A DNA stretch of 63,995 nucleotides, the filler included. It is 5 parts of 5 records of this genome, joined end to end, with 100 filler letters (N's around TTAATTAATTAA, not from the genome) between each part and the next. Parts side by side here need not be neighbours in the genome. Positions count along the whole stretch, not along the records: positions 22,719 to 44,776 come from SRR31156797_11894; 4 more parts are not named here. The stretch is one strand, 5' to 3'. Under the pieces are notes generated by a model that was given only the letters and a program-made list of their open reading frames with translations, ran no database searches and was not told the DNA's origin. Each line of letters starts with the position of its first letter. Positions within the stretch are counted from its first letter, which is position 1. Made by a program: the position numbers and the translations under genes. Positions 20,133 through 44,876 of the stretch are shown piece by piece.

Positions 20133-20142
20133 AATTTAACCT

Positions 20143-21713: not shown

Positions 21714-21756
21714 TGGAGACTCCCCCTGTTGATTCCAAAACCCACTAAATAAGTTA

Positions 21757-21772
21757 TGCAAAATGTACGCCA
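21757..21772 (-). promoter_or_regulatory. sigma54 promoter upstream of flgF
   Basis: Minus strand TGGCGTACATTTTGCA = GG-N10-GC. Confidence 0.75.
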
Positions 21773-21856
21773 CCCATGGCAGCGTCTAAACTGATCTAAT
21801 TTAAATTCAGTTTAACATATTCAAAAAAAACCATCATGCTATTTCAAGAAAGGCTT

Positions 21857-23368: not shown

Positions 23369-25033
23369 CTACATCGATGTTTGCATCTGTTGTTTCAGAA
23401 TCTTCTTGTCCGCTTTTCCGGCAGCGGTGAGCGGGAAGTGGTCCAGTACATCGATCCTTGAAGGTACGAATCGTTTAGGGGTTTCCATCCGTTGTAGTCC
23501 GGATATGATATCGTCCGCGCACAAATTTTCCCCTTCAACCGGCTTGATGAAAGCGCAAATCGCCTCCCCCAGATCGGGATCCGGCATGCCGACTGCCGCC
23601 ACGTATTCAACTTTTGGCAGGGAAGATATGAGATCTTCGATGTCCCGTGCGGCGATGTTTTCTCCGCCTCTGATAATGATATCTTTTATGCGCCCGGTAA
23701 TGCGGACGTGTCCTTTTTCATCTATTACAGCTAAATCTCCGGTTCTGAAAAAACCATCTTCGGTGAATGCGTCCTTGTTCGCTTCCGGGTTATGCAGATA
23801 ACCGGAAAAGATTCCAGGTCCATTAGCCACCAGTTCTCCTTCAACTCCTGCCTCCGTCGGAGATCCCTCGGCATCCAATGTGCGGAATTCATCGTAGGGA
23901 CAGCAGCGCCTGCCGATGGTATTGGTTCGTATCTCGATGGGATCATCGATCCGGCTCTGGCATAAGGGGCCTTCCACCATGCCGAATCCGTTAATGTACA
24001 CACAATTTTTAAATCGGCTTTCAACCTGCCGGACAAGTTCGGGCGGACTGTTGGCCGCACCAACGTATATTTTCTTCACCGAACCCAAATCATAGTCGCC
24101 GATTTTGTCATGGTTGACGATCCTACTGATCAGTGTGGGCACCAATGCGGTGCAGGTGATTTTTTCCCGCTGGACCATATGGCAGAAATCTTCGGGATAG
24201 GTGGAATCGAGCATAACGATTTTTGCGCCCTGAAAAACCGGGCCGGTTATGCCGATGAGCAGTGCCAAATTGTGACCCACGGTGCTGGCAACCAGACAGG
24301 TATCGTCGGGATTCATATGCCAACTCTTCGACGTGAACTCGATGTTGCACATATAGTCGTTGTGAGTCCTCGGAGCCCCCTTGGGCAATCCCGTCGTCCC
24401 CCCGGATGGAAGTATTTGGCAGACCGCTTTCGGGTCCGGCCTGGAAATCATTAGGGTAGACTTGATGGCATCGGAACCATTTTGATCTTTCAACAGAGAC
24501 TCGAATGTTTCATACTCTGTCGGGCTTTCGCTTCGTGTGAGAAACACCTTTTCGAGTGCCGGGTTTTCAGCTTTAACCTGTTCGATAATAGGCAGATAGT
24601 CCATCTTTCTGTATTTATCCGGGACGATCCAGGCCCTGGGATCGGTCAATTTGGCCAGGTGTGAGGTTTCCCGCGCTGTATGGTTTACCGTTAATAGAAC
24701 CATGACGAGCCCCGCTTTTTGAATGGCATAATACGAGATGACGAATTCCGCCCAATTGGGAAGTTGAAGCAGCACGGTATCGCCCGGTCTCAATCCTTTC
24801 CGAAGCAATTGATAAGACATGATATCAACCATTCCTTTCAGCTCGGAATAGGTGTATCTTCTGTTACCGTCCACCAAAGCTTCTTTATCTGGGAAGACAT
24901 CCGCCGTCCGGTCAAGCGTCGCTCCAATAGTGAGATCAAGCCACCATTTCTGCTTGGCATAAAAACGAATATCTTCTTCCGAATACTGCCGTAGTCCGTC
25001 CATTTCGATCGACTTTCCTTTCACTGTAAACAA
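23369..25033 (-). CDS. AMP-binding enzyme, aryl-acid adenylating (DhbE/aryl-CoA ligase-like)
   Basis: PSGGTTGLPKG, FGMVEG, FFRTGDL, GRIKDIIIRGGENI, PLTAAGK; start may be 25003. Confidence 0.9.
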   Translation of the reverse strand: MFTVKGKSIEMDGLRQYSEEDIRFYAKQKWWLDLTIGATLDRTADVFPDKEALVDGNRRYTYSELKGMVDIMSYQLLRKGLRPGDTVLLQLPNWAEFVISYYAIQKAGLVMVLLTVNHTARETSHLAKLTDPRAWIVPDKYRKMDYLPIIEQVKAENPALEKVFLTRSESPTEYETFESLLKDQNGSDAIKSTLMISRPDPKAVCQILPSGGTTGLPKGAPRTHNDYMCNIEFTSKSWHMNPDDTCLVASTVGHNLALLIGITGPVFQGAKIVMLDSTYPEDFCHMVQREKITCTALVPTLISRIVNHDKIGDYDLGSVKKIYVGAANSPPELVRQVESRFKNCVYINGFGMVEGPLCQSRIDDPIEIRTNTIGRRCCPYDEFRTLDAEGSPTEAGVEGELVANGPGIFSGYLHNPEANKDAFTEDGFFRTGDLAVIDEKGHVRITGRIKDIIIRGGENIAARDIEDLISSLPKVEYVAAVGMPDPDLGEAICAFIKPVEGENLCADDIISGLQRMETPKRFVPSRIDVLDHFPLTAAGKADKKILKQQMQTSM

Positions 25034-25046
25034 AATTTTTCCCCGG

Positions 25047-26015
25047 TTACTGGGTTAAGGTTCGGATGTTCCGGCTCTGCAGGATGAACAGTTTTTCGTT
25101 TTGGAATGCCCATTCAACATCCTGCGGAAAATCAAAATGCTTTTCGATCTTGAGTCCGACTTTCCCCAATCTTTGCAGGTGCTCGTATTTGAGACTCGGA
25201 GTTTTGCATTTATCAGGTTCTATTTTCCTGTCGATTCTCCCGAATCCTTTTTCGTCATCAAAACAACACATTATCGTTTTGGGGGATATAACTTGCTGTT
25301 TGACTTCCAGTTCCGGTTTCCCCAACAAGAAAAAGTCGTTCATTGATTTTCCTGAAACAACGGATTCTCCAAGTCCCCAATTTGATTCGATGACTATTTC
25401 ATCTCTTTTACTCGTGATGGGGTTGGCGGTGAATAAAACACCGGCTACTTCCGAATGGACCATTTTCTGAACAACGGGTGCGATTAATCCACAGTCGTGT
25501 TCGATATTCTTGTGGAATCGGGCCATTACGGCCCTCTGGGTCCATAGTGAGGCCCAGCACTTGCGAATATGCTCAATAATTTCATCCTCGCCCTTCAGAT
25601 AATGAAAAGTGTCCATCATCCCCGGGAAGGATGAAATCGAGCTGTTCTTAACGGAAACTGAAGATCGAACCGCGACGAACGGGTCTTCGGATTGACAAAG
25701 ATCGGAAACGCTATCCGATATTTCGCTGTAAAGCTGCTCCGGAATCCGGGCCTCACGGATCAGTTTTCGAATCTGTCGGGTTTTTATTTCCAATTGCGAC
25801 AGATCCTCATAATCAAAGGTGTCGACAATGGCGTAAATATCCGGTTTCAGGCCGTTATTTTCGATCAAATAGTCCAAGGAACGGGCCGTAACACAGAATC
25901 CGTCGGGAACATCGAAGCCGGCCTGGGTCAGTTCTCCCAGGTTTGCAGCCTTGCCGCCGCATTCCTCAAAATCTCTTTTTGTCATTTCACTGAAATGTTT
26001 TATGTATTTCCTCAT
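25047..26015 (-). CDS. Stand-alone PEP-synthase/PPDK N-terminal ATP-grasp domain protein (PpsB/CreI-like subunit)
   Basis: GGKAANLGEL, VPDGF, VAVRSS, SFPG, GLGESVVSG, PQDVEWA...LFILQSR; ends there, no His-swivel or PEP-binding domain. Confidence 0.9.
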   Translation of the reverse strand: MRKYIKHFSEMTKRDFEECGGKAANLGELTQAGFDVPDGFCVTARSLDYLIENNGLKPDIYAIVDTFDYEDLSQLEIKTRQIRKLIREARIPEQLYSEISDSVSDLCQSEDPFVAVRSSVSVKNSSISSFPGMMDTFHYLKGEDEIIEHIRKCWASLWTQRAVMARFHKNIEHDCGLIAPVVQKMVHSEVAGVLFTANPITSKRDEIVIESNWGLGESVVSGKSMNDFFLLGKPELEVKQQVISPKTIMCCFDDEKGFGRIDRKIEPDKCKTPSLKYEHLQRLGKVGLKIEKHFDFPQDVEWAFQNEKLFILQSRNIRTLTQ

Positions 26016-26045
26016 GGCTCTGTCCTCTTCCGGTATTCTCTATTT

Positions 26046-26061
26046 AGCAAAATATATGCCA
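26046..26061 (-). promoter_or_regulatory. sigma54 promoter upstream of the ATP-grasp/ligase/permease genes
   Basis: Minus strand TGGCATATATTTTGCT = GG-N10-GC. Confidence 0.75.
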
Positions 26062-26291
26062 TAATAACGATTGTTCTATAAGTAGTTAAAATAATAGATT
26101 ATGTCGCCAGTTGTCCCGTTCGATCCTAAAGGAATTTTCAAGAAATGAAATTATTTTATTCAGAAATTTTAAAGGCTTAAGTTTTTAGAATGCATTTCTA
26201 GAAGATGAAACGTTTCCCAGGCCGAAAGCTAATACGACCTAGCTATTATAGGCAATTCACAAATGAGTTTTTTGGAGCATGGCCGAAGAAT

Positions 26292-27104
26292 TTAAAGTGG
26301 CGAGTCCGGGTCAAACTCCGGTTTTCTTTTCTCCATCAAAGCGGACAATCCTTCACTGACCTCGGGTCCCCTGAAACCCAGCATTTCAAGCGCCAGAGAA
26401 TTATCGAAGATCGGCCCCGCCATTCGGTACCAATTGTTCAGAGCGAGCTTGGTCCATCGAACGGCATTGGGTGCGGCGAGTGCAAGTTTTTTAGCGACTC
26501 TTATGGATTCTTCCTCCAAATCGGCGTCTTCGACGCATTTGGAGACCAGACCGATCCGTTCGGCCTCCTCGCCGTACACGGGATCGCAAGTGAGCAGATA
26601 GTATTTTGCCTTGGCCATGCCGCAAAGAAGCACCCAATTGATGCATGCGCAATCTCCGGCCGCCACCCCCAGTCTCGTATGCCCGTCGCTGATGCGGGCC
26701 GATTTGGCAATGATGGAGATGTCGGCCAGCAGTGCGGCCACCAGACCTGCCCCAACCGCCACTCCGTTTATTGCGGACACGATCGGTTTTGAACAGTTGA
26801 TCACGTTGTAAACCAGATCGCGGGCTTCCTTGTAGCCGGTGACGGTATTTTTCCAGATCTCGCTATTGTCCCGAATCATCCCGAAGTCGCCCCCGGCCGA
26901 AAAGGCCTTCCCTTTTCCGGCCAGAATTACCGCGTTGATATTGCGGTCCCGGTCAATATCTTGCCAGATATTGGCCAGATGATTGTGTCCGCTGGAGTCG
27001 ATGGAATTGTAGCTTTCCGGTTTGTTGAAGGAAATTCGCAGGACGCGCTCGAAGGGACTATCGTATTCAAAAGACGGATATTTCTCCTGATATAAACTGA
27101 TCAT
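26292..27104 (-). CDS. Enoyl-CoA hydratase/isomerase (crotonase) family
   Basis: AFSAGGD, AINGVAVGAG, DGHTRLGVAAGD, AEERIGLV-like motifs. Confidence 0.92.
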   Translation of the reverse strand: MISLYQEKYPSFEYDSPFERVLRISFNKPESYNSIDSSGHNHLANIWQDIDRDRNINAVILAGKGKAFSAGGDFGMIRDNSEIWKNTVTGYKEARDLVYNVINCSKPIVSAINGVAVGAGLVAALLADISIIAKSARISDGHTRLGVAAGDCACINWVLLCGMAKAKYYLLTCDPVYGEEAERIGLVSKCVEDADLEEESIRVAKKLALAAPNAVRWTKLALNNWYRMAGPIFDNSLALEMLGFRGPEVSEGLSALMEKRKPEFDPDSPL

Positions 27105-27151
27105 AATAAATTTCTCCTCATTTCAATAAAACATCATGCAGGCATTCATTT

Positions 27152-28339
27152 TCAGGCCTGAATGACAAAGCTCTCTCCTTCGGCAATGCCTCCGCAAATT
27201 GTCACCAAGCCGTATTTCGCGTTGCTACGAAGCATTTCATAGATGAGCGTCATGACCAGGCGACCGCCGGTTGCACCTGTTGGATGGCCGATGGCAATGG
27301 CGCCTCCATTCACGTTAGTCTTCTTTCTGATTTGTTCGATTTTTTCCGGATTGTCTCCTCCAAGAATTTTGGTGGAGACCAGGGGCATTGCGGCAAAGGC
27401 CTCGTTAATTTCGATCAAATCCATTTGATCCACGGTCATTTCGGCTTTTTCCAGGGCTTTTTGCGCCGTGTAGGCAGGTATGGAAGCGATGTGTTGAGGA
27501 TGATCCGATCCCTGGGCATGACTGATGATGGTAGCCAGGGGTTTCATGCCCAGTTCATCGGCCTTTTGTTTGGACATAAGGAGTAAAGCGCTCGCTCCGG
27601 TGCTTAATCCCGGTGCATTTCCCGCGGTTACCGTCGGACTTCCGTAAACCGTTGGAAGACTGGCCAATTTTTCCAGCGTGGTATCGGGTCTGGGGCCTTC
27701 GTCTTGTTGGACTATTGTGATTTTTCCCTTTTTGCCTATTACCTCTACCGGGAATATTTCGTCTTTGAATTTATTTTTTTGAAAGGCTTCCGCATAAAGT
27801 TTATGGCTTCTGAGCGCCCATTTGTCCTGTTCTTCCCTGCCGATGCCATGCTCTTCCGCTTCTTTTCCGGCCTGCACCGCCCTTGGTACACCGGTATACG
27901 GGCATTTAACGATAAGCAAATCCTTTAGGACGACGTCCCCCAGTCTCTTTCCCCAGCGGAGATCGCTCAAAAAATAAGGGGTTTGACTCATGTTCTCGAC
28001 ACCGCCGGCCATGATCATATCCGCTTCACCGGCTTTGATGGCGCGATAGCCCATGGCGATTGCGGCAGTGGAGGAACAGCAGGCTCTATCCAGCGTGCTG
28101 GCGTTAATGGTGTCGGGCAGCCCGGCTCTCAAAGCGACCTGTCTGGCAATGGACCGCTCCGAATCAGGCATATTTTTTCCGAGATAGACCTCATCGACAT
28201 CCCCCACATCAACCTTGGATCTCGTTATCAGTTCCTTGAAGGCCGCGGCACCAAGATCAATAATATTGAAATCCCTCAATATTCCGCCAAGCTTCCCAAA
28301 CGGTGTTCTAACGGCGTTAGTGATAACCACTTCGTTCAT
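27152..28339 (-). CDS. Thiolase (acetyl-CoA C-acyltransferase)
   Basis: RACCSS catalytic Cys, NEAFA, GGAIAIGHP, ICGG. Confidence 0.95.
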   Translation of the reverse strand: MNEVVITNAVRTPFGKLGGILRDFNIIDLGAAAFKELITRSKVDVGDVDEVYLGKNMPDSERSIARQVALRAGLPDTINASTLDRACCSSTAAIAMGYRAIKAGEADMIMAGGVENMSQTPYFLSDLRWGKRLGDVVLKDLLIVKCPYTGVPRAVQAGKEAEEHGIGREEQDKWALRSHKLYAEAFQKNKFKDEIFPVEVIGKKGKITIVQQDEGPRPDTTLEKLASLPTVYGSPTVTAGNAPGLSTGASALLLMSKQKADELGMKPLATIISHAQGSDHPQHIASIPAYTAQKALEKAEMTVDQMDLIEINEAFAAMPLVSTKILGGDNPEKIEQIRKKTNVNGGAIAIGHPTGATGGRLVMTLIYEMLRSNAKYGLVTICGGIAEGESFVIQA

Positions 28340-28363
28340 GATTGTCGTTCCTCTCTCTATGTG

Positions 28364-29581
28364 TTATACGACGTTACTTGTTTTCAACGCTTCCATGGTC
28401 GCTTCGTCGATATTTAAAATATTGCTCAACACCTCTTGAGTGTGTTCCCCCAACCTTGGGGCCGGCTGCGCCGTTCTGTCCAGCGGGACATTTTTCATTT
28501 TAATGGGATTGCCAACCAGTTTGACTTTGCCCCCCACTGGATCGTCGACCTCAATCCACATGCCCCTGGCGTCGGCTTGCGGACATTCATAAATATCCTT
28601 GGAAGTTCTGACCTTGCCGATGGGCACCCCGGCTTTCAGCAGAATGTCGCAAACTTCGTCCGAAGTATACTTGATCATCCAGGACTCGATTATCGGCGCC
28701 AATTCGGATTTGTTCTTAGTTCTTTTCATGGCATGGTCAAAACGCGGATCCTCAACAAGCCCAGGCTTTTCAATGACGTTACAGAACCTTTCCCACATTT
28801 TGGCCTCGAAAATAATCAGGGCCACATAACCGTCTTTGGTCTTAAAGGCTCCCCAAGGGTATACCAGGGCTTCCTTTCCCCTGGCCAAAACATTTTTGGT
28901 GAGAGAATAGAAGGTGTTTGCCCTCTCCGTCAGGCTTAGCATGACGTCGTACATGGCAACGTCGATATATTCTCCGAGACCTGAGATATTACGTTTGTAA
29001 AGCGCCAGACTGATAGCGTAGGCTGTTAACATGCCCGGCACAACGTCTCCAAAAGCGATCATGGGATGCAGGGGAGGGCCATTCTCTTCACCAATCAGAT
29101 TCATCAAGCCACCCATGGCCTGGATTACGATATCGTACGCCGGATTTTCAGAATATGGGCCTTTGAGGCCTTCCATTTGTCCGAAACCACTGATTGTGGC
29201 GTAGATTAAACTGGGATTAATCTTATTTAATGCTTCGTAATCCAATCCCATTTTGGCGAATGTTCCGGGCCGCAAGTTTTCAACCAAAACGTCGGCATGT
29301 TTAACAAGCGCCAGGAATATATCTCGTCCTTTTTTACTTTTTATATCCAGCGTGACGCTTTTTTTGTTCCGATTAAAACGCATGAAATAGCCGCTGAATT
29401 TGTCCCCATTTTCATTTTTTACAAAGGGACCTCCCTCTCTGGCGGGATCCCCATAACGTGATTCGATTTTAATGACTTCCGCCCCGGCATCGGCTAACAT
29501 CATAGTACAGAAAGGCGCGGCAACCTGGGTTTCCACGGCAATTACCCGTATATCGTGTAATGGCTTTTGACCATTTAACAT
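28364..29581 (-). CDS. Family III CoA-transferase (CaiB/BaiF)
   Basis: LADAGAEVIKIE, NRNKKS, ENLRPG, ISGFGQ, AYD...QA.GG, APRLGEHT. Confidence 0.95.
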   Translation of the reverse strand: MLNGQKPLHDIRVIAVETQVAAPFCTMMLADAGAEVIKIESRYGDPAREGGPFVKNENGDKFSGYFMRFNRNKKSVTLDIKSKKGRDIFLALVKHADVLVENLRPGTFAKMGLDYEALNKINPSLIYATISGFGQMEGLKGPYSENPAYDIVIQAMGGLMNLIGEENGPPLHPMIAFGDVVPGMLTAYAISLALYKRNISGLGEYIDVAMYDVMLSLTERANTFYSLTKNVLARGKEALVYPWGAFKTKDGYVALIIFEAKMWERFCNVIEKPGLVEDPRFDHAMKRTKNKSELAPIIESWMIKYTSDEVCDILLKAGVPIGKVRTSKDIYECPQADARGMWIEVDDPVGGKVKLVGNPIKMKNVPLDRTAQPAPRLGEHTQEVLSNILNIDEATMEALKTSNVV

Positions 29582-29634
29582 TCTAAATCCTCCCTCCATT
29601 GTGAAATTCGGTTTTGTTTCGAATTAAAAAATAA

Positions 29635-30027
29635 TTAGAAACGAGCCTTTATGAGTTCTATGACGTCCTTTACCTCACTGCCGGGACCAAAAACTGCATC
29701 AACACCGATTGATTTCAGGTACTTCACATCCGCTTGGGGGATAATTCCCCCTACCAGGAGCATGACATCTGTAAAGCGGTTTTCTTTTAACTGTGTTACC
29801 ACCTTTTCCATGAGCTGGTTATGGGCTCCGGACAGAATGCTCAGGCCGATCACGTCGACCCCTTCTTCCATGCCCGTTTTGACGATCGACTCAGCTGTTT
29901 GCCGTAATCCGGTATAGACGATCTCCATTCCGGAATCCCTCAGCATATAGGCGACGACCTTTGCCCCACGATCATGGCCATCCAGGCCCGGCTTTCCGAT
30001 GAGTACCCGAATTTTACGATGGGCCAT
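29635..30027 (-). CDS. Cobalamin-binding small subunit of acyl-CoA mutase
   Basis: KPGLDGHDRG (DxHxxG), GLSILSG, GGII, FGPG. Confidence 0.95.
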   Translation of the reverse strand: MAHRKIRVLIGKPGLDGHDRGAKVVAYMLRDSGMEIVYTGLRQTAESIVKTGMEEGVDVIGLSILSGAHNQLMEKVVTQLKENRFTDVMLLVGGIIPQADVKYLKSIGVDAVFGPGSEVKDVIELIKARF

Positions 30028-30040
30028 TACAATCCTCCGT

Positions 30041-31672
30041 TTACAATATACCCTGGTCCTGATATGTTCCGTATACATCTGTCAGACACGACGTGATCTC
30101 TCCCAGGGTGGCGTAGTGTTTGGCGGCTTTGACGACCGATGGAATAATGTTCTTTCCTTCCTGGGCGTCACTCCGTACCAGATCTAATGCTTTTTTAACC
30201 TTTTCCATGTCCCGATCGGCTTTCATCAACCGCAGCTTTTCGATTTGACTTTTTTCCAAATCAGGATCGACTTGGAAAACAGGGATCTCATCCTCTCCAT
30301 CTTCACGAAAGACATTAACGCCGATGATAAGACGATTTTTTTCTTCAATGGCCTTCTGGAATTGATGGGCCTCATGGGCCAACTCCTTTTGGAAGAAGCC
30401 GTTTTCAATGCATTTCTCCGCACCACCCATTTCAGTGATTTTATGAATGTAATTGTTGATTCTTTCTTCAATATTGCATGTCAACGTTTCAAGCGCGTAA
30501 CTTCCACCTAACGGATCGACGATTTTGGTTAATCCGGCTTCCTGGGCGAGTATTTGCTGGGTTCTCAAAGCCACGGTGCTGGCTTGTTCGGTAGGGAGAG
30601 AAACGGCTTCATCAAATGACGATGTGGCCAAGGTCTGAACGCCTCCCAGCACTGCCGCCATTGCTTCGACTGTCACTCGGACAATATTGTTTAGGGGCTG
30701 CTGTGCGGTAAGGGTCCCTCCGGATGTGTAAGCGATAATGCGCAATTTCATGGATTCGGGTTTTTCGGCGCCAAACCGTTCTTTCATCATCCTGGCCCAG
30801 ACCCGCCTTGCCGCCCGGAACTTGGCAATTTCTTCTATGATTTCAATATGCGATGAAAGAAAGGTGGAGAGTTTCGGTGCAAAATGGTCGATATTTAGGT
30901 TTCTCTTGAGCGACTCTTCAATGTAGCTAATACCATTGGCAAAGCAAAAGGCGATTTCTTGGGGTGCGTTTCCGCCACTTTCTCTTATATGATAACCGCT
31001 CAAGGAAATGGGAACCCAATCGGGCATATGTTTTGCTGCGTATTCGATAACGTCAACGGTAAGTTTTACGGATGCTTTTGGCGGGAAAATATAGGTGCCC
31101 CGCGCAAAATATTCTTTAAGGGGATCGTTTTGCAGAAGGATCTTTATAGCATTTGGTTCAATGTCATTTTTTTCGGTAAAAGCGATAATAAATGCTGTTA
31201 TTATCGGGGCGATGGCATTGGCAGTGGTGCGGATTTGACGGACTTTCTTAAGCGGTATTCCTTCAAATAATTTTTCAATGTCCGCCAGACTGTTAATGGT
31301 CACACCAACCTTACCCACCTCGCCGGATGAGAGTTCATGATCTGAATCGAGCCCTATCTGCGTAGGTAGGTCCAGCGCCACGGAGAAACCCGTCTGCCCC
31401 TGTTCCAGCAGATATCGGAACCTTTTGTTGGCCTCTTCAGCCGAACCGAATCCGGAGTACTGACCCATAATCCATGGATCATTCCTGTACATACCCCGGT
31501 GATTACCGCGTGTGAACGGGTATTCACCGGCTTTATTCAGATCATCACGATATACAAAGTTTATTTTCTCAAGATCCTCCGGTGTATTTTCCTCTTTAAG
31601 GAGAATTCCCGAGTTGGTAACAAACTTCTCCTGCCTTTCATTGTCCTCAAATTTTGAATCACCACTCATCAT
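30041..31672 (-). CDS. Acyl-CoA mutase large (substrate-binding) subunit, MCM family, divergent
   Basis: YPFTRG, GQYSGFG, DLPTQ.G.DSD, QNDPLKEY.ARG, SGYHIRE, DPLGGSY. Confidence 0.92.
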   Translation of the reverse strand: MMSGDSKFEDNERQEKFVTNSGILLKEENTPEDLEKINFVYRDDLNKAGEYPFTRGNHRGMYRNDPWIMGQYSGFGSAEEANKRFRYLLEQGQTGFSVALDLPTQIGLDSDHELSSGEVGKVGVTINSLADIEKLFEGIPLKKVRQIRTTANAIAPIITAFIIAFTEKNDIEPNAIKILLQNDPLKEYFARGTYIFPPKASVKLTVDVIEYAAKHMPDWVPISLSGYHIRESGGNAPQEIAFCFANGISYIEESLKRNLNIDHFAPKLSTFLSSHIEIIEEIAKFRAARRVWARMMKERFGAEKPESMKLRIIAYTSGGTLTAQQPLNNIVRVTVEAMAAVLGGVQTLATSSFDEAVSLPTEQASTVALRTQQILAQEAGLTKIVDPLGGSYALETLTCNIEERINNYIHKITEMGGAEKCIENGFFQKELAHEAHQFQKAIEEKNRLIIGVNVFREDGEDEIPVFQVDPDLEKSQIEKLRLMKADRDMEKVKKALDLVRSDAQEGKNIIPSVVKAAKHYATLGEITSCLTDVYGTYQDQGIL

Positions 31673-31779
31673 ATTACCTCTACCCTGCCTTAAATCCCCC
31701 GCTCATTAGCAGGGGATGGGTGGATTCATAAAGCACAAGTTCCCATCATTAAAAAAGATGATTTACGTTTTTCGAATTC

Positions 31780-32988
31780 TCAATCCCTGGGAGGAAAGCC
31801 TTCCACATGGGGAACGTATATATGACCTTTTCCCGCGTATGATATTTTTTCATACATAATTTGATTCTCAATAAAACAGTGATCCGGGATAGACTCGAAT
31901 TTGAAATTGCTGTCGCCGCCGCGTCCTTTTCCCCACACGGGGCAACTCACCGGCAGGAAATGTCTTTGCGTGTCGATGCAGTTGCAGCAATAGATGCATT
32001 TTGCAATCTCTTTTTCCCGTCCTTCCATTGCCTTGATCGGCCAATCCGGGTCTGCAATCAAGGGACGACAAACCCCGACGATATCGACGCGGCCCTCTTC
32101 AAGGACTTTTTCAGCAATTTCGGGGGTGGGGATGCGACCGACACCCTGGACAGGAATTGTCACCGCTTTTTTAACGGCTTCCATGACATGAAGGTTGCAG
32201 CATTCGGCGTATGACCGGGGTGGAATGCAACGTTGCCCGCTGTACCCCGTATACCAATGACCGTCTTCATATCTGCCGCCAACAGAGACATCCATGTAGA
32301 ATACACCCGCATCTTCCAGCAGCTTGGCGGTTTCGCAAGCAAGCTGGGTGGTTACTCCGCCGGACACAAAATCATCACCGTTAATGCGACAATTCACCAA
32401 AGCCGATGTTCCGCACTCCTCTTTGATCAAAGCGATGCAATCCAGTAATACCTTGGCGCGTTTTTTTACGCTCCCCCCGTATTCATCCGTTCTGCGATTG
32501 GCTGTGGGGGATAACATGGAAGCAAAGGTATAGGCATGAGCGGCATGCAGCTGTACAAAATCAACGCCGCAGTCAAAGCAGCGTTTGGCAGCGGAAACGT
32601 ACTGCTCGTTCATTTCCGCGAATTCCTTCGGCTTCATATCGGTCGGTTCCATTCGATAATTGTGGGAAACGCTGGGCCAATGAACCAGTTGAACCCCGCA
32701 TTTGGCTCCATATTTGTGAATGACGTCCACAATACGTTTAAGCCCCTCTTTGTAACTATCGTCCACCATTCGCATGAGATTGCCGCTCGGACGCTTATGG
32801 ACGCCCACCGCCTCGACAACCACCATGCCCACGCCGCCCGCGGCGATTTGCTCATACCACTTGACATGCTTTTCAGATACATACCCGCCTTCCAAACCGA
32901 ATTGCGTGGAAGCCGGCGGCATGACCAACCGGTTTTTCAATTTCAAAGGCCCCAGATCATATTCACTAAACAGCTTTGGGTAGTTCAT
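31780..32988 (-). CDS. NADH:flavin oxidoreductase (Old Yellow Enzyme family) with C-terminal Cys cluster
   Basis: LKNRLVMPP, HAAHAY, NRRTDEYGGS, RPLIADPDW, CIYCCNC...C. Confidence 0.9.
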   Translation of the reverse strand: MNYPKLFSEYDLGPLKLKNRLVMPPASTQFGLEGGYVSEKHVKWYEQIAAGGVGMVVVEAVGVHKRPSGNLMRMVDDSYKEGLKRIVDVIHKYGAKCGVQLVHWPSVSHNYRMEPTDMKPKEFAEMNEQYVSAAKRCFDCGVDFVQLHAAHAYTFASMLSPTANRRTDEYGGSVKKRAKVLLDCIALIKEECGTSALVNCRINGDDFVSGGVTTQLACETAKLLEDAGVFYMDVSVGGRYEDGHWYTGYSGQRCIPPRSYAECCNLHVMEAVKKAVTIPVQGVGRIPTPEIAEKVLEEGRVDIVGVCRPLIADPDWPIKAMEGREKEIAKCIYCCNCIDTQRHFLPVSCPVWGKGRGGDSNFKFESIPDHCFIENQIMYEKISYAGKGHIYVPHVEGFPPRD

Positions 32989-34650: not shown

Positions 34651-36996
34651 ATGGGAACTATGCATACATCTACTGAAAAGACAATTTGTGACGCCGTTCA
34701 TGCAGCCCAACACGACCAGCGGTCGGATTTGGTATCGGCAGCGGTTAATTCGATTCACCCCGACGCGCTGGATGTGTTCTTTCACGCTGGATTGGAGACC
34801 ACTGCCATAACATCCAAACCGGCCACCACCGGGCTACCTGCTTCACCTGGCGCCGCCGTGGGTGAGGTCGCTTTGGACGCAGCCCAGGCGCTGGCTATGG
34901 CTGAGGCGGGGCGGTCAGTAATTCTGGTGCGATCCGAAACAACCCCAGACGACGTGTTGGGCATGCAGGCCGCCCAAGGGATTCTAACGGCGCGAGGCGG
35001 GTTAGGGTCTCACGCCGCCATTGTTGCCCGCGGCTGGGGAAAGCCCGCGGTGGTGGGGGCCGTCGACGTGCACGTCGTTGCCGGCGGCATAGAAATCGAT
35101 GGTATCTCAGTGAGCGAAGGCGACCCTTTGACCATTGACGGCAGCACCGGTGCTGTCTACATAGGCGAGCTCGAGGTGTCATCACATGAGCCTCCAACCG
35201 AGCTGAACCAACTGCTTCACTGGGCCGACCAAGTTGCGGAGACCGGCAGGGTTCAGGTGCGGGCCAACGCGGACACCCAAGACGATGCGAGTATGGGCCG
35301 CACGTTGGGAGCAAAAGGTATCGGGCTGTGCCGAACTGAGCACATGTTCCTGTCTCCCGATCGACTCCCGATGATGCGCCGCTTCATACTGAGCGAGACG
35401 GTTGCCGAGGAACAAGAGAGTTTACAACAACTTGAAAAAGCCCAGGTTGCTGATTTCGAGTCGGTGCTGGAGGCCATGGACGGGCTGCCGGTAACGGTTC
35501 GCCTGCTCGACCCGCCACTGCATGAGTTTCTGCCCGACTTAGTGGACCTCACCGCCAAAGAGGCCCGAGGCGAGTTGAATAGCGTCGAGGCAAAGGAGCT
35601 GTCGGCGGCGCGGCGGCTACACGAAACTAACCCCATGATCGGCACCCGAGGGGTGCGGATGGGTATGGTGCGTAGCGGTTTGTACGAAATGCAGGTTCGT
35701 GCGTTGTCGGTTGCGGCCGGCAACCTGATTCAGCGGGGAAAGCAACCGCGGATAGAGATCATGATTCCCCTGGTCGTTAATGAACGTGAACTATCCATGG
35801 CCAGACAATGGGTAACCGATACGTTGGACCAGTCGGGCCACCCGGAGTTGGCGGCCGAAGCCATTTCGATCGGGGCGATGATCGAAACACCCCGCGCCGC
35901 CTTGGTGGCCGGTGCGCTATCAGAGCACTCCGACTTCTTCTCCTTCGGCACTAACGATCTAACCCAAATGACATTCGCCTTTAGCCGCGACGACGTTGAA
36001 GCTCGCACGCTTCCCGCCTATCAGGAGAGGGGGATTCTCGAAGAGAACCCGTTCGCGGTGTTAGATCATGACGGGGTTGGCGCCCTGGTAGAAATGGGCT
36101 GCAAGGCCGCCCGCCAGACCAAGCCATCGATCAAACTTGGGGTATGCGGTGAACACGCGGGTCACCCAGACTCGGTGGACTTCTTTGTTCGGGCCGGAGT
36201 GGACTCGGTGAGCTGCTCACCGTTTCGAGTTCCGCTGAGTCGCCTGGCGGTGGCTCAGGCTTTGCTGGCCTCAGGCCGCGTGTCGGCTGAAGCAGTGCCG
36301 TTTACCTTCAACAGCTCTGGAACCTCATCGGCTGATGTTGATGGCAGCTCCTCATCCTCTGAACAGCCCGGAGGACAACCCGTAGACGAGACCGCGCTGG
36401 CGGTGGACGAAGATCTCGTGCTGTATGTTCTGCGGGTTCGAGGCTTCATCACCCCCGAAGGCCTGCTGGAGAGCTTGGGTACGGTTCCCACCGACATGAT
36501 GGCCGACTTTGTGAGCCAGGGCTGGGTGAACCATATGGAAGATAGCGACATGTATTCACTTACTCCCGAAGGGAAAAAAGAACAGCAGCGTCGCTTCGAC
36601 TCGGCCGCCGACCCGGCTCTGGCCCAGGCGTTATCGCCCGGCTACCGGCTTTTTTTGAAGCTCAACACCGAGTTTAAGGAACTGTGCAACCGCTGGCAGT
36701 TGAAAGACGGCGCTGTCAATGATCACTGTGACATCGCCTATGATCAACTGCAGCTTGATGGTCTCGCGTCGCTCGCTGATAGGGCCCAACCCGTTCTCGT
36801 GCAGCTGGCGGAGGTCCTCCCCCGCCTGGCGCGTTACAATAGCCGCCTGCAGGAGGCTTTTCTGCGGGCGGTTGGCGGTGAAACCAAGATGTTTACCGGC
36901 GTGATGTGTGGCTCATTTCACGATATATGGATGGAGCTGCACGAAGACCTCATGCTGCTACAAGGCATCAATAGAGCTGAAGAAGGCAGCTTCTAG
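34651..36996 (+). CDS. PPDK-like PEP-utilising protein lacking the ATP-grasp domain, fused to an Rv1126c-like C-terminal domain
   Basis: GLPASPGAA.G, GGLGSHAA (His121), GIGLCRTEHMF, RLLDPPLHEFLP, ENPM-like NPMIG.RG.R, MIETPRA, SFGTNDLTQ, GVCGEH; Ser-rich linker; extra ~195-aa domain ending SFHDIWMELHEDL. Confidence 0.85.
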   Translation: MGTMHTSTEKTICDAVHAAQHDQRSDLVSAAVNSIHPDALDVFFHAGLETTAITSKPATTGLPASPGAAVGEVALDAAQALAMAEAGRSVILVRSETTPDDVLGMQAAQGILTARGGLGSHAAIVARGWGKPAVVGAVDVHVVAGGIEIDGISVSEGDPLTIDGSTGAVYIGELEVSSHEPPTELNQLLHWADQVAETGRVQVRANADTQDDASMGRTLGAKGIGLCRTEHMFLSPDRLPMMRRFILSETVAEEQESLQQLEKAQVADFESVLEAMDGLPVTVRLLDPPLHEFLPDLVDLTAKEARGELNSVEAKELSAARRLHETNPMIGTRGVRMGMVRSGLYEMQVRALSVAAGNLIQRGKQPRIEIMIPLVVNERELSMARQWVTDTLDQSGHPELAAEAISIGAMIETPRAALVAGALSEHSDFFSFGTNDLTQMTFAFSRDDVEARTLPAYQERGILEENPFAVLDHDGVGALVEMGCKAARQTKPSIKLGVCGEHAGHPDSVDFFVRAGVDSVSCSPFRVPLSRLAVAQALLASGRVSAEAVPFTFNSSGTSSADVDGSSSSSEQPGGQPVDETALAVDEDLVLYVLRVRGFITPEGLLESLGTVPTDMMADFVSQGWVNHMEDSDMYSLTPEGKKEQQRRFDSAADPALAQALSPGYRLFLKLNTEFKELCNRWQLKDGAVNDHCDIAYDQLQLDGLASLADRAQPVLVQLAEVLPRLARYNSRLQEAFLRAVGGETKMFTGVMCGSFHDIWMELHEDLMLLQGINRAEEGSF

Positions 36997-37104: not shown

Positions 37105-39057
37105 ATGCTTGAACTGAGAAAAGGGGATGAAATTCTTGCCACCATGGGTAGGATCACCACCATGGGTGAGGCAGAAACCCTGATTTCCGAGAAATTGGAT
37201 GATGCTAACCGGAAAAAATTGTCGCTGATAAAAACCGAAGAGGCATTGAACAAAATCGCCAACGCCATCGTCATGTGTCGCCCCGACCATGTATTCGTAA
37301 ATACAGGTTCCCCTGAAGATGTACAGTGGATTCGTGAGTACTCCCTGGAAAAAGGTGAAGAGCGAAAACTTATCAAGGAAGGGCACACGATTCATTACGA
37401 TCTCCCTCAGGATCAGGCAAGACTCGTTAAACAGACATTTTATATCATTAACGAAGGGGAGCAGATGAGTTCCCTGGCAAAATCCGTTTTACGCAGTGAG
37501 GCCATTGATTATATAAAGGAATTCATGCCGGGAATAATGGAAGGAAAAACCATGATTGTCGGTTTTTACAGCCGTGGGCCCGTGGGGGCGGAAGCGGCCA
37601 TTCCCGCAATTGAGATATCTTCATCAGGCTACGTACTGCATTCCGCCGAACTGCTCTATCGCAACTGCTACCGGCACTTTGATTCAGAAGCAAACCGTGC
37701 CGGACTCTTCTTCACCAATGTCCATTCGGAAGGAAACAACACCTCGGAAGACGTACCAAACGCGCGGATTTTCATGGATAGAAGCTGGATGACCACCTTC
37801 TCCACATTCTGCACCTATGCTGGAAACACCCTGCTGCTGAAAAAAGGAAATCACCGTTTCAGTGTCGATTATGCCACCTATTATAAGGTTGAGGAGCAGT
37901 TATCCGAGCATATGTTTATAACCGGCCTGACTGGCCCAAAAGGTCGCAAAACCTTTTTCGCGGGGGCTGCGCCATCTGGCTGTGGCAAAACCACAACTGC
38001 CATGGTCGGCAGCGATTTCATTGGAGATGATCTTGCGCAATTCTGGATAGATTCGGGCGGAGTTCTCAGAGCAATCAACCCGGAAAAAGGTATTTTCGGA
38101 ATTGTAGAGGATGTTAACCGTGAGGGTGACCCCTTCCTGATGGATTGTCTACGAGGAGATGGCACCGAGGTGATCTGGTCCAACGTACTTATCAATGATG
38201 GAGTTCCCCATTGGGTAGGCAATGGGGAGGAATCACCGGAGAAAGGCGAGAACTTTCAAGGGGACTGGTTTACAGGAAAAACCGATATCGACGGTAGTCT
38301 AATCCCCATGTCCCATAAGAATTCCCGCTGCACCCTGCTCGCTTCAACAATTGCCAATCATGCGACCGAGCTCGCTGAAGATCCGCAGGGAGTACCGGTC
38401 AAGATCATTACCTACTCAGGGAGAGACTCCGATACTATGCCGCCGGTCTGGGTGGCAAAGAGTGCCGTTGAAGGTGTTGTTATCGGAGCGTCAATTGTTT
38501 CCAAAGCCACTGCTACAGAGGTGGGCGCGACTGGAGTGAATCGACAGCCGTGGGCCAATGCTCCTTTTATACCCGGAGCACTTGCGGATTATATGGAAGC
38601 CCAGTTTACCTTCTTTAATTCCGACAAATTTACTGAAGAGACCCGACCCATCATGGCCGGCTTAAACTATTTCCTTACTGAGGGAAACCGAGGTGGCACC
38701 GGTCCCAAATTATTGGGTGAAAAAAAGGATGTAAAAGTCTGGCTCGGGTGGTTGGAATTATTCGCCAACGGTGATGTTGATGCAATCAACACCCCAATCG
38801 GCTATCTCCCTAAATATGAAGATCTGGCCACTCTTTTTGCGTCGATCTATAAAGAATACGATAAATCATTATACGAAAAGCAGTTCGCGCTCTATATTGA
38901 CAAAATCGTCGATCGAATTGACCTGCAGCGTGATGCCTACAGCAAAGAAGCTGACATCCCGCAGACACTTTTTTCAGTTTATGAAAAACAGCGAAGTGAA
39001 CTCCTACAATTGAGAGAAAAATTCGGACCGATATTCGTAATCGACAGCTTTAATTAG
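37105..39057 (+). CDS. pckG: Phosphoenolpyruvate carboxykinase (GTP)
   Basis: YAGN, SEHM, AAPSGCGKT, IGDDLA, INPE.G.FG, H.NSR, NYF. Confidence 0.93.
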   Translation: MLELRKGDEILATMGRITTMGEAETLISEKLDDANRKKLSLIKTEEALNKIANAIVMCRPDHVFVNTGSPEDVQWIREYSLEKGEERKLIKEGHTIHYDLPQDQARLVKQTFYIINEGEQMSSLAKSVLRSEAIDYIKEFMPGIMEGKTMIVGFYSRGPVGAEAAIPAIEISSSGYVLHSAELLYRNCYRHFDSEANRAGLFFTNVHSEGNNTSEDVPNARIFMDRSWMTTFSTFCTYAGNTLLLKKGNHRFSVDYATYYKVEEQLSEHMFITGLTGPKGRKTFFAGAAPSGCGKTTTAMVGSDFIGDDLAQFWIDSGGVLRAINPEKGIFGIVEDVNREGDPFLMDCLRGDGTEVIWSNVLINDGVPHWVGNGEESPEKGENFQGDWFTGKTDIDGSLIPMSHKNSRCTLLASTIANHATELAEDPQGVPVKIITYSGRDSDTMPPVWVAKSAVEGVVIGASIVSKATATEVGATGVNRQPWANAPFIPGALADYMEAQFTFFNSDKFTEETRPIMAGLNYFLTEGNRGGTGPKLLGEKKDVKVWLGWLELFANGDVDAINTPIGYLPKYEDLATLFASIYKEYDKSLYEKQFALYIDKIVDRIDLQRDAYSKEADIPQTLFSVYEKQRSELLQLREKFGPIFVIDSFN

Positions 39058-41244: not shown

Positions 41245-41532
41245 ATGCATATCATCACTCGAAGGCGCTTACTTGAATTTGCCAAAAACCATCCGGATTG
41301 TTCCAATGCAATGGAATCCTGGTATCGTATTGTGAAACACACTGATTTCAATTCTTTTCATGAACTCAGGCAAACTTTCCCGAGTGCTGATAAGGTCGGC
41401 AACTTAACCGTCTTCAACGTCGGGGGCAACAAAGTCCGTCTGATTGCAGCTATACACTATAATCGTCATAAGGTTTACATCCGGCATGTTTTGACGCATG
41501 GGGAATATGATCGAGGATACTGGAGGGAATAG
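41245..41532 (+). CDS. higB: Type II toxin HigB (RelE superfamily)
   Basis: MHII..., FPSAD.VG..TVFNVGGNK.RLI..I.Y....YIR.VLTH.EYD. Confidence 0.92.
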   Translation: MHIITRRRLLEFAKNHPDCSNAMESWYRIVKHTDFNSFHELRQTFPSADKVGNLTVFNVGGNKVRLIAAIHYNRHKVYIRHVLTHGEYDRGYWRE

Positions 41533-41933
41533 TGGGAATCCAACTTAAAGAAATTGCGGAGATATGGCCCGTTATCCAGCCCATACTTTCGGTGCCGCAC
41601 AGTGAATCAGACTATAACAAGCTGATCGTTTTCCTTGATAGCCTTATTGATGAAGTGGGCGATAATGAGAAACATCCACTGGCATCTCTGATGGAAACCG
41701 TTGGGAAACTGGTTGAAACGTATGAAACCCGATATGTTCCCGAGATATCGAGTAATCCGATAGATACATTGAAATCTCTGTTGATGGAGCACGAACTGAA
41801 ACAATCGGATTTGGCTGAAATCGGCAGTCAAGGTGTTGTATCTGAAATTTTGTCAGGTAAACGTCAGTTGAATCTCCGTCAAATCAAAAGGTTGAGCAAA
41901 CGTTTCAAGGTGTCTCCTGCAGTTTTTTTATAG
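41532..41933 (+). CDS. higA: Type II antitoxin HigA (HTH)
   Basis: LKQSDL.EIGSQGVVSEILSGKRQLN; start overlaps the toxin stop (TAGTG). Confidence 0.92.
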   Translation: MGIQLKEIAEIWPVIQPILSVPHSESDYNKLIVFLDSLIDEVGDNEKHPLASLMETVGKLVETYETRYVPEISSNPIDTLKSLLMEHELKQSDLAEIGSQGVVSEILSGKRQLNLRQIKRLSKRFKVSPAVFL

Positions 41934-42934: not shown

Positions 42935-44434
42935 TCAAAGATGAGGCGGGGATACTTTCCCCTCTGCCAGCAGGCGGGAAATGTTCGAATAAAATGACCC
43001 CACATGAAGAGGCCTCGGTATGACCAGGTCTGCCCCGGGGGGCAGTGAAAGCCCGGTGCCATGGGTGTTTGGTCCATTGAACAGGGCGATGGGCAAGTCC
43101 GGATGGGTATGGCGGGCCTTTTGAATAAGCCATGCGGTGTTTGCAGGGTTTTTGCTCAGATCCACCAGCAACAGATCAAACGGGTTACCCTTCAGGGTTT
43201 TAAAGCATTCACCATGGCTGTCAACGCGGGTGACGTGGAGGTGTTTCCCCTCAAGAAAACGGCAAAGCAAATTGATCAGGATGTTCTGATCTCCAATGAG
43301 CAGGATTCGTGAATCTTTGATGGATTTCTTTTTGGGCGGGTCGTCTGTTTTAAACGGCTCCAGTGGTAACACCATGTGAAAGGTCGTCCCCCCCGCTTCA
43401 TGGCGCAGCACCCTTATTTTTCCACCATGCCTTTCGATGACGGACCGGACCAGACTCAGCCCCAGACCCTTGTGCCCGTTACCCTTGGTGGAGAAAAAGG
43501 GGTCAAAAATTTTGTCTGCCGCATTTTCATGAATACCGCATCCGTTTTCCTGTACATAAATGTTGATTAGCCCAGGCTTTTCCTCGGCCGTCAGGTAGAT
43601 TTCCCCTTTACCTTCCAAAGCCTCCTCAGCGTTAATGATGAGGTTCTGGAAAGCATTGTGTAAATCTTCTTGACACCCCTTTATAAGAGATGTGGCATTG
43701 AGAGAAATTTTGAAGGCGATTTGATCCTCGGAATTTTGAGCGTTTTCAAGATTGATGCCCTTTTCCGAACAGTATCGTGAAACGGATGCTTCGATTATTT
43801 CATTTAAATTCAAGGGGGATATGTCGGATGGGTGATAGGCCTTTTTAGCAAACTTTCTCAAGGTTGCCGAAATGGGGGTCCCGGGTTTCATGGCGGTTTC
43901 CCATTCCTGAACAAAAGTGCCGGCTATTCTTTGAAGCGCTTCAAACTTTTGGGCTTCCAGAACGACTTTTTCCTTTTCTATCTTCCGTTCGATTTCAATC
44001 AAGTTGAGCAGAAATGCATTTCGGCCTTCGTACCGGGTTTTTTTAATGTGTACCGCGCAATAAACCGATCTCCCTTCACTGTTTTTGAATTTTAATGCAT
44101 CCGGCCGCTGGTTGCCGGCGTTGTCCTGTATAAACTCGAGAATGGGTTGCACGTCCCCGGGATCGATGATATCCAACAGACTTTTTCCCACAAGCTGACC
44201 CAGACTGTAGCCAAGCCACTTGGAAGCCGCATCATTGGCATACACAATGGTTTCCTGCTGCAGAAGAAAAAGCCCCCCCGGCACATGGGCCATCAATTCC
44301 CAGGCTCTTTCCAGGTCTTTTTTCAACCGCGTTTTTTCTTTTCTGAGGGTTGCAATCTTCTCTTTCAGCCCACTGTTTTCTTCTCTTAGCCTGTGCCCCC
44401 AGCTGCGCGCTTTCTTTTTTTGTTCAATCTTCAT
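42935..44434 (-). CDS. PAS + degenerate histidine kinase + receiver-like hybrid protein
   Basis: [24 protein letters not shown]-box has no His; C-terminal REC-like domain. Confidence 0.8.
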
Positions 44435-44563
44435 GCCGTTTTTAAATCTCCGGGATTTCTTGAAACACGCTTGATGATTTTCGGCATATACCGTATCATA
44501 TTCCTTTTTGGTCTTACAATAGATTCATCGTTTAAACGGCAACATGGCCTGAGGAGAAAGTAC

Positions 44564-44776
44564 GTGAGCGATTCACCCTTTGTTCACCTTCATGTTCATA
44601 CGGAATACAGCCTGTTGGATGGGGCCATTCGAATTGATCGAATGTTGGACAAATCCAAGGCACAGGGGATGGGTTCAGTGGCCATCACCGATCATGGGAA
44701 TATGTTCGGCGTGGTTGATTTCTTTGGCCGGGCGGCCAAGGCAGGTATCAAGCCCATTATCGGCTGTGAAGTCTAT
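44564..44776 (+). CDS. dnaE: DNA polymerase III alpha subunit, 5' fragment
   Basis: [34 protein letters not shown]; truncated by the contig end. Confidence 0.95.
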
Positions 44777-44876
44777 NNNNNNNNNNNNNNNNNNNNNNNN
44801 NNNNNNNNNNNNNNNNNNNNTTAATTAATTAANNNNNNNNNNNNNNNNNNNNNNNNNNNNNNNNNNNNNNNNNNNN
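44777..44876. other. Artificial contig spacer
   Basis: N-run + TTAATTAATTAA + N-run. Confidence 0.99.

Follow-up and report, generated by a model that had tools for sequence, protein, structure and literature searches.

The fusion gene and its domains

The stretch of DNA analysed here (63,995 nucleotides including filler, five parts of one genome joined end to end; hereafter the window) contains, in the part derived from SRR31156797_11894, an open reading frame (ORF) at positions 34651-36996 on the plus strand that encodes 781 amino acids followed by a stop codon. Its translation, Pfam and NCBIfam searches and an alignment with maize pyruvate, phosphate dikinase (PPDK; structure 1vbg) divide the product into half a PPDK and a C-terminal domain (CTD) of Rv1126c-like kind (after Rv1126c of Mycobacterium tuberculosis). 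The protein begins with helices at residues 8-44 (34672-34782; AlphaFold2 predicted local distance difference test score, pLDDT, ~95), and from residue ~30 onwards it corresponds to the linker that follows the ATP-grasp domain in PPDK (maize residue 366 onwards), the ATP-grasp domain itself being missing. Then comes the swivel phospho-histidine domain PF00391 at residues 89-167 (34915-35151; E 3.1e-22), with the codon for His121, the catalytic histidine of GGLGSH, at 35011-35013 as placed by the 1vbg alignment and an alignment of 50 homologues. The phosphoenolpyruvate (PEP)/pyruvate-binding TIM barrel PF02896 occupies residues 186-537 (35206-36261; E 1.9e-73), and its motifs RTEHMF, SFGTNDLTQ and GVCGEH are all in the translation. 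A flexible Ser-rich linker, residues ~546-586 (36286-36408; translation and full-length model), connects this core to the CTD of ~195 amino acids (residues 585-781), in which a MarR-like winged helix-turn-helix at residues 587-637 (36409-36561; profile search against PDB, AlphaFold2 and VIA-align) is followed by a helical bundle at residues 639-778 (36565-36984; alignment, AlphaFold2 and VIA-align). All of these features lie on the plus strand.

The matches to PF00391 and PF02896 are far past chance level, and the PPDK ATP-grasp domain (PPDK_N, PF01326) gave no Pfam match in the 781-residue protein. This is the pattern of Pfam matches that an earlier note on this DNA, made from the letters alone, had predicted, and the ORF, swivel His121, full barrel and missing ATP-grasp domain that it described are borne out by the translation, Pfam, the NCBIfam PPDK model TIGR01828 and 1vbg. 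TIGR01828 aligns its positions 359-864 (of 865) with residues 29-538 at 601 bits (cut-off 843.45), and residues 366-875 of maize PPDK align with residues 30-538 at E 1.5e-134. In the latter alignment GGLGSH faces GGMTSH, which identifies His121 as the catalytic histidine and places Gly119 where PPDK has its regulatory threonine, the residue of GGMTSH that is phosphorylated by the PPDK regulatory protein. The loss of this threonine had also been pointed out, and it extends to the family, since among 50 members position 119 is Val in 24, Gly in 12, Ala in 7 and Thr in only one. The catalytic histidine is invariant in all 50 aligned homologues, as are the barrel residues R228, E230, H231, R284, R333, E412, N435, D436 and C499, and the mean column identity across the whole protein is 59% in this 50-member alignment. 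Among the 50 homologues the linker is 34-89 residues long, and in the window protein residues 555-580 of it are predicted to be disordered in the full-length model (pLDDT <50). The translation also has the other features of the earlier description, namely a Ser-rich linker and FKELCNRWQ, NDHCDIAYD and SFHDIWMELHEDL as motifs.

Models of related families scored below their cut-offs: TIGR01417, for Enzyme I of the phosphotransferase system (PTS), gave 148.1 bits (cut-off 341.7), and NF004531, for the VadK-type short PPDK and presumably the NCBIfam model tied to VadK (Rv1127c), gave 105.6 bits (cut-off 456). The HPr-binding N-terminal subdomain of Enzyme I gave no Pfam match in the window protein.

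Structure and conservation of the C-terminal module

The CTD sequence had no significant match in Pfam, NCBIfam or the PDB sequences (best PDB E 6.7), and an XPC-binding match at E 0.18 was dismissed as noise. When 1.84 billion representatives were searched using just the CTD as query, 1236 matched at E<=1e-3 and 705 of these at E<=1e-10, and the best 150 were mostly free-standing proteins of about 190-235 amino acids. When the window CTD was aligned with 48 free-standing members, F668, G743, H757, W760, H764 and R775 were invariant across the 49 sequences and W682, Q683, N690, H692, D694, D698, R725, Y729, R732, S755 and E762 nearly so. The module motifs WQ, NDHxDxxYD and S(Y/F)HD(V/I)W(M/F)ELHE are all present in the window CTD, and the bundle holds W682, Q683, N690, H692, D694, D698, R725, Y729, R732, H757, W760, E762, H764 and R775.

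AlphaFold2 modelled the CTD with a pLDDT of 93.8 and a predicted template modelling score (pTM) of 0.87, as a winged helix-turn-helix followed by a four-helix bundle. VIA-align superimposed the winged helix on the MarR structure 5h3r (Z 10.7, root-mean-square deviation 2.1 Å, 68 residues), in agreement with the winged-helix-like start that had been read from the letters. The winged helix was also the only part matched in a profile search of the PDB sequences with the CTD (best E 2e-4). The MarR models PF01047 and PF12802 gave no match in the window CTD, and the remainder of the CTD is a separate four-helix bundle. The best superposition for the bundle was on the FAT domain of p130Cas (Z 12.7, root-mean-square deviation 2.2 Å, 111 residues), a score below the level at which helical-bundle matches exceed a common arrangement, among otherwise generic four-helix neighbours. 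Foldseek with the CTD model returned nothing from the PDB at E<=1e-3, and kinship of the bundle with DinB/MDMPI_N was ruled out (hhalign probability 0.1). An invariant histidine on a predicted four-helix bundle recalls histidine phosphotransfer (HPt) domains, in shape only; PF01627 (HPt) had no match in the window protein or in the CTD family members scanned. Matches of the CTD in the ESM Atlas were confined to unnamed or 'MarR'-labelled clusters of Actinomycetota, and the clusters of ten free-standing representatives, from metagenomes, carried the names 'hypothetical protein' or MarR.

The full-length model had a pLDDT of 85.6 and a pTM of 0.67. Since linker residues 555-580 are disordered in it, the module appears to be tethered to the core and not confidently packed on it. 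A complex prediction for the core (1-545) and the CTD (585-781), run without alignments, gave a score of 0.08 (mark 0.34) and weighs neither way.

A conserved family of fused proteins

The CTD search found at least 210 proteins at E<=1e-3 within a length window of 429-1367 amino acids. Among the 120 of them that were listed, 111 had PF00391 and PF02896 and were about 650-820 amino acids long, the other nine were short PF02896-only pieces on small contigs, and PF01326 occurred in none. Named sources of these barrel fusions were Desulfosarcina, Spirochaetota, Sphaerochaetaceae, Acidimicrobiia/Ilumatobacter and Acidobacteria. The earlier note had allowed for a truncated pseudogene, should close homologues carry an ATP-grasp domain; the listed homologues do without it and form a conserved family. 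Paralogues were also sought in the genomes of four carriers of the barrel fusion and one carrier of the mirror fusion described below. Four of the five also hold a full-length PPDK above the TIGR01828 cut-off, and the fifth has a PPDK in pieces. A complete PPDK alongside the fusion in the same genomes indicates that the half-PPDK is a dedicated paralogue.

Judged by these homologues, the fused gene is a conserved architecture, and the pseudogene reading was dropped. That the gene is a decaying, functionless remnant of a transferred PPDK is hardly credible: its foreign base composition (see below) and the loss of one of the three PPDK domains would suit such an origin, but the frame is intact across 781 codons, at least 210 homologues share the architecture at similar lengths of ~770-800 amino acids, the catalytic residues do not vary in 50 of 50, and the CTD is strongly conserved, which makes decay very unlikely.

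Relation to VadK and Rv1126c

VadK, first described in 2026 (EMBO Rep, PMC13400623), is a regulatory kinase that derives from PPDK and that M. tuberculosis needs for virulence. According to that paper, VadK autophosphorylates at His422 with ATP and Mg, the methylcitrate cycle is under its control by a route that is not transcriptional, and a vadK mutant is rescued by vitamin B12 (PMC13400623). Rv1126c is its operonic partner; co-expression raises the solubility of VadK, and removal of Rv1126c takes a wash with 2 M NaCl (PMC13400623, methods).

A tblastn search of annotated plasmids with the CTD gave 23 records, from Rhodococcus (11), Streptomyces (5), Mycobacterium (2), Nonomuraea (1) and Proteobacteria (4). 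On the plasmids of M. branderi and M. avium, a CTD-family gene of 200-201 amino acids lies directly downstream of a 'pyruvate, phosphate dikinase' gene of 522-542 amino acids, and this short PPDK has PF01326 and PF00391 only, i.e. the rv1127c/rv1126c layout. The M. branderi partner aligns end to end with the window CTD over 191 ungapped residues (30% identity, BLASTP E 4e-29), and the M. avium partner matches the CTD-family profile with an hhalign probability of 100. The kinship with Rv1126c that the earlier note had proposed from motifs is thus supported through these positional homologues, the comparison having been made with them and not with Rv1126c of strain H37Rv itself. These alignments support the view that the window CTD belongs to the family of mycobacterial short-PPDK partner proteins.

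Like VadK and Rv1126c, the window protein represents a PPDK derivative that has kept the swivel histidine and one of the two catalytic domains and has an Rv1126c-like module alongside. It differs in that the PEP/pyruvate barrel is kept where VadK keeps the ATP-grasp domain, and in that the module is fused, whereas in Mycobacterium it is a separate protein. With a barrel in place of the ATP-grasp domain, the histidine of the window protein should be charged by PEP and not by ATP. As far as sequences can tell, the window protein is probably a PEP-charged mirror image of the VadK/Rv1126c unit.

Mirror fusion, gene trios and the module elsewhere

CTD-family genes were located at a minimum of 595 genome loci (595 of 600 candidate stretches confirmed), of which the 80 best were examined; in GC-rich loci the ORFs were chosen by a greedy longest-ORF rule, so that wrong frames are possible. 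At 27 of the 80, the histidine domain and barrel core lie upstream in the same gene, or beside it with the frame broken. The mirror fusion came from an Acidimicrobiales metagenome-assembled genome (locus L080), in which a 723-amino-acid protein joins an ATP-grasp domain, the histidine domain and the CTD and scores 464.9 bits on NF004531, above the cut-off of 456. Among the 120 listed matches to the L080 CTD, 41 have PF01326 and PF00391, in proteins of 513-773 amino acids, which makes the mirror fusion a separate family.

The module in many other genomes is a separate protein of ~200 amino acids, with its gene between a VadK-type short PPDK and a 'PEP-utilizing enzyme' that consists of an unassigned N-terminal domain, which can reach about 450 residues, and a C-terminal PF00391. 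At each of the nine plasmid loci inspected (from Mycobacterium, Rhodococcus, Streptomyces, Diaphorobacter and Methylibium) the CTD is accompanied by a short PPDK, a 'PEP-utilizing enzyme' or both, encoded by neighbouring genes or, in R. opacus B4, as a fusion. Five of the nine, including that of the betaproteobacterium Diaphorobacter, had the full trio of short PPDK, CTD protein and 'PEP-utilizing enzyme'. At locus L037 a free-standing CTD gene precedes a VadK-like ORF (447 bits on NF004531). In Streptomyces fumanus (L066, positions 2614-8398 of that locus) a free-standing CTD gene has on either side an ORF with a swivel histidine domain at its end, and after these come an MDMPI_N/DinB-type protein and a flavin monooxygenase, a three-part layout unlike the mycobacterial one.

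A tree of 96 CTDs, built by a quick method with Shimodaira-Hasegawa-like approximate likelihood ratio test (SH-aLRT) support, placed the ATP-grasp-fused CTDs in one group (SH-aLRT 88) and the barrel-fused CTDs in one group plus a single fragment, both nested among free-standing CTDs. The two fusion types have the swivel histidine domain and the module in common and nothing else, which argues that the module works with a phospho-histidine, whether charged by ATP or by PEP.

At loci of Ilumatobacteraceae (L036, L048, L073, L056, L040 and others), free-standing CTD genes are directly upstream of dapA and RNase J genes; a weak AurF-like di-iron protein is frequently encoded upstream of them, and their flanks contain no PPDK-like gene. 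Genes for AMP-binding, acyl-CoA ligase-like proteins recur next to CTD genes, both on Rhodococcus and Methylibium plasmids (L100, L102 and L104) and upstream of the CTD genes of Ilumatobacteraceae (L040, L050, L051, L058, L059, L063, L065, L070 and L077).

Gene neighbourhood and origin of the fusion gene

A gene for GTP-dependent PEP carboxykinase (PEPCK; 37105-39057, plus strand) starts 108 nucleotides downstream of the fusion gene on the same strand and may be co-transcribed with it. In the window a PEP-producing PEPCK therefore sits beside a PEP-using fusion protein, a pairing that is not conserved at other loci. The window neighbours PEPCK, an HD protein, threonine synthase and a PPDK_N-only protein were not conserved beside the homologues, and a single match was obtained for the Old Yellow Enzyme (OYE) flavoprotein. 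A methylmalonyl-CoA mutase gene was present in the flanks at 6 of the 27 loci with the barrel fusion, and at least three arrangements occur among the six; in the window it lies at 30041-31672, 3 kb upstream of the fusion gene, with the B12-binding subunit at 29635-30078. These neighbours hint weakly at propionyl/methylmalonyl-CoA metabolism, which is suggestive beside the tie of VadK to propionate and B12.

The mutase genes are part of a catabolic operon of native GC content on the minus strand (23369-32988), which also encodes an AMP-binding ligase, the PPDK_N-only protein, an enoyl-CoA hydratase, a thiolase, a family III CoA-transferase and the OYE flavoprotein, the mutase being represented by the B12-binding subunit and a methylmalonyl-CoA-mutase-like large subunit. 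The hydratase is 54.5% identical to one encoded two genes downstream of the mirror fusion at L080. The PPDK_N-only protein (322 amino acids; 25047-26015, minus strand) is of the PEP-synthase/rifampicin-phosphotransferase type and 41% identical to the product of an Oceanispirochaeta gene, which is there followed by a gene for a 564-amino-acid histidine-domain protein (L109).

A second swivel-histidine ORF was found 5-13 kb from the barrel fusion in three of four genomes. In one of these (G005) it encodes 572 amino acids with 24-36% identity to the 'PEP-utilizing enzymes' of the trios and adjoins a Rieske oxygenase gene, and in another genome (G003) a PPDK_N-only gene is followed by that of a 564-amino-acid histidine-domain protein.

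The GC content of the fusion gene is 0.56-0.64 (about 60%), as against 0.35-0.50 (about 45%) on both sides, and at Acidimicrobiia loci the fusion gene equals its surroundings in GC content. In the quick tree the window CTD falls in a subclade (SH-aLRT 99) with Spirochaetota-named and other sequences, nested among Acidimicrobiia-rich ones. The simplest reading of these compositions and groupings is that the fusion gene would have been acquired horizontally from a GC-rich actinobacterial lineage, the donor probably being an Acidimicrobiia-like member of the Actinomycetota. Flanking repeats that would mark a mobile element were not found around the fusion gene, and a promoter/terminator scan gave nothing above shuffled expectation.

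Elsewhere in the window, a HigB-like toxin gene (95 amino acids) overlaps an HTH_3 antitoxin-like gene (133 amino acids) at 41245-41933 (plus strand) as a toxin-antitoxin pair. An ORF at 44393-44824 resembles the beginning of a gene for DNA polymerase III alpha (PHP domain); its translation ends in a run of X, from a stretch of N at about 44780-44830 that was read as an assembly gap or masked bases. Upstream of the catabolic operon, 12720-22369 on the minus strand holds a CheA-type histidine kinase gene and a flagellar basal-body block with flgN, flgI, flgH, flgA and two rod genes.

Discussion

Comparison with known systems

The barrel-module fusion is undescribed in the literature that we searched, and it is a member of the PEP-utilising enzyme superfamily, Enzyme-I-like in its expected action. 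That search, on VadK/Rv1126c and PPDK-like fusions and partly at the level of titles and abstracts, returned the VadK paper and a preprint, and nothing on a barrel-containing counterpart or on a role for the Rv1126c family.

With PPDK itself (TIGR01828; structures 1vbg and 1dik) the window protein shares the region 30-538, aligned with PPDK residues 366-875, including the catalytic histidine and all residues of the PEP/pyruvate site, but it differs in having no nucleotide-binding domain, in the lost regulatory threonine and in the added domain of 195 amino acids. The likeness to PTS Enzyme I and EI-Ntr (TIGR01417) lies in a swivel histidine charged by PEP in a homologous barrel and, presumably here, in a protein partner that takes the phosphoryl group onward; the barrel and histidine domain also match Enzyme I structures. 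In contrast to Enzyme I, the window protein has a PPDK-type core and no HPr-binding subdomain, and its presumed partner is a winged helix with a four-helix bundle and not HPr.

In phenylphosphate synthase PpsABC and rifampicin phosphotransferase, modular ATP-grasp, swivel-histidine and substrate-binding parts are divided among one to three polypeptides. Such kinases resemble the short PPDK, CTD protein and 'PEP-utilizing enzyme' trios as modular parts in catabolic clusters, and the NCBIfam RPH/PEP-synthase models match the relatives examined here. The accessory protein PpsC is presumably of a different kind from the Rv1126c-like module, and we know of no PpsABC-type or rifampicin phosphotransferase system described with such a module or with a PEP barrel as its energy module.

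A possible PEP-driven relay or adaptor

The reading that we favour, and hold to be somewhat better than an even call, is that a PEP-charged His121 works together with the tethered Rv1126c-like module as a relay or adaptor. The gene would be a PPDK paralogue that has kept the second half-reaction alone. PEP bound in the barrel would phosphorylate His121 of the swivel domain with release of pyruvate, as in PTS Enzyme I; such autophosphorylation is expected because the second-half active site of PPDK is intact, as seen from its conservation. With no nucleotide-binding domain, there should be no half-reaction with ATP, AMP and pyrophosphate. Deprived of the ATP-grasp domain as its destination, the phospho-histidine domain would instead engage the Rv1126c-like module on its flexible linker of ~40 residues. 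Three things point to such an engagement: the pair of mirror fusions, the trios of genes and the tight association of VadK with Rv1126c in the literature. The module may then serve as the next phosphoryl carrier, or as an adaptor through which either the phosphoryl group or the state of phosphorylation is conveyed to a target, and a step in carbon catabolism would likely be controlled or phosphorylated as the output. The earlier note had proposed for the CTD a phospho-acceptor or substrate module that can be charged from ATP or from PEP; such a module would fit the two mirror fusions, and a winged-helix regulator or adaptor is equally open.

Several observations weigh against a relay or adaptor. 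About 48 of the 80 loci examined have no histidine or barrel domain in their flanks (tblastn, E<=1e-5), a number that is an upper bound because tblastn missed the upstream histidine domain of L066, which Pfam found. At those of these loci that were annotated, the free-standing CTD genes adjoin dapA (all 5 of the ORFs tested) and RNase J (9 of 9) in a housekeeping neighbourhood, so that the module also exists away from PPDK-like genes. The VadK paper has VadK acting via methylcitrate-cycle enzymes and gives no role to Rv1126c (PMC13400623). Phosphate acceptance by the CTD and phosphotransfer within the fusion family are putative steps, and the conserved His, Asp, Asn and Arg residues of the CTD could equally suit a site for a small ligand or a metal. 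At none of the 80 loci do PEPCK and the HD protein recur, and the recurrence of the mutase may reflect descent, since all six loci are of Acidimicrobiia type. Finally, neither a second swivel-histidine gene (by tblastn) nor a PpsA-like gene was found in the window, so that no acceptor is in sight there.

A bolder version of the relay would make the Rv1126c-like module a new histidine phosphocarrier, functionally analogous to HPr or HPt and composed of a winged helix plus a four-helix bundle, and this we regard as possible but tentative. If it is true, the module would connect swivel-histidine energy modules, whether ATP-charged (the VadK type) or PEP-charged, with output kinases or metabolic enzymes, in a PTS-like phosphorelay for catabolic and propionate-related pathways. 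Such a relay would be widespread in Actinomycetota and passed on to Spirochaetota, Desulfobacterota and Proteobacteria, and it would explain the role of the partner of VadK in tuberculosis.

Alternative explanations

Unlikely, in our estimate, though the first to be weighed against the relay or adaptor, is a one-component transcription regulator, in which the half-PPDK would sense the PEP:pyruvate ratio via phosphorylated His121 and the winged helix of the CTD would bind DNA, its binding being altered by phosphorylation or by a ligand in the bundle. The first ~70 residues of the CTD match winged helices of the MarR/DtxR type, both in the profile search (E 2e-4) and in the MarR superposition (Z 10.7), the databases name free-standing members 'MarR family transcriptional regulator', and a winged helix with a C-terminal helical domain is also the layout of PadR and GntR-FCD proteins (weak matches). 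However, no Pfam HTH model passes its threshold (weak MarR_2 matches occur in 8 of the 49 members, best E 0.0037), and the strongest conservation lies in the bundle and not in the putative recognition helix. According to the VadK paper, VadK does not act on the methylcitrate cycle transcriptionally, and a free-standing member co-purifies tightly with the enzyme (PMC13400623).

Rather improbable is a PEP-dependent small-molecule kinase, with the CTD bundle as a third active site or substrate pocket in which a metabolite would be phosphorylated by His121~P. It would account well for the mirror fusion of ATP-grasp, histidine domain and CTD, where the CTD takes the exact place of the barrel, and the polar cluster N690, H692, D694, D698, R725, Y729, R732, H757, E762 and H764 resembles a binding or catalytic site; many of the loci are moreover catabolic clusters with oxygenases, AMP-binding ligases and dehydrogenases. 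On the other hand, a four-helix bundle of ~120 residues with generic structural neighbours would be an unusual substrate domain for a kinase, and the trio loci already hold a large 'PEP-utilizing enzyme' that resembles the substrate-binding part of one.

We consider it very unlikely that the protein is one part of a split PPDK or PEP synthase that pairs in trans with an ATP-grasp protein such as that encoded at 25047-26015, the CTD being a docking or oligomerisation piece. This 322-amino-acid PPDK_N-only gene is 9 kb away and has the fusion gene as its sole histidine-domain partner in the window, and split swivel-histidine kinases do exist, as in L109, where a PPDK_N-only gene precedes a histidine-domain gene. 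But its type is that of PEP synthase and rifampicin phosphotransferase and not of PPDK, it belongs to a separate operon, which has native GC content and runs on the opposite strand, and fusion-bearing genomes already have a full PPDK. A split enzyme would also leave unexplained why the same CTD is found on proteins that already have an ATP-grasp domain.

Significance

The two mirror fusions provide strong comparative evidence that the module works with a phospho-histidine, whatever the charging substrate. Through these environmental fusion proteins the role of Rv1126c becomes a testable question. The barrel fusion also points to a family of PEP-charged proteins that resemble Enzyme I and would act outside the PTS in signalling or as kinases.

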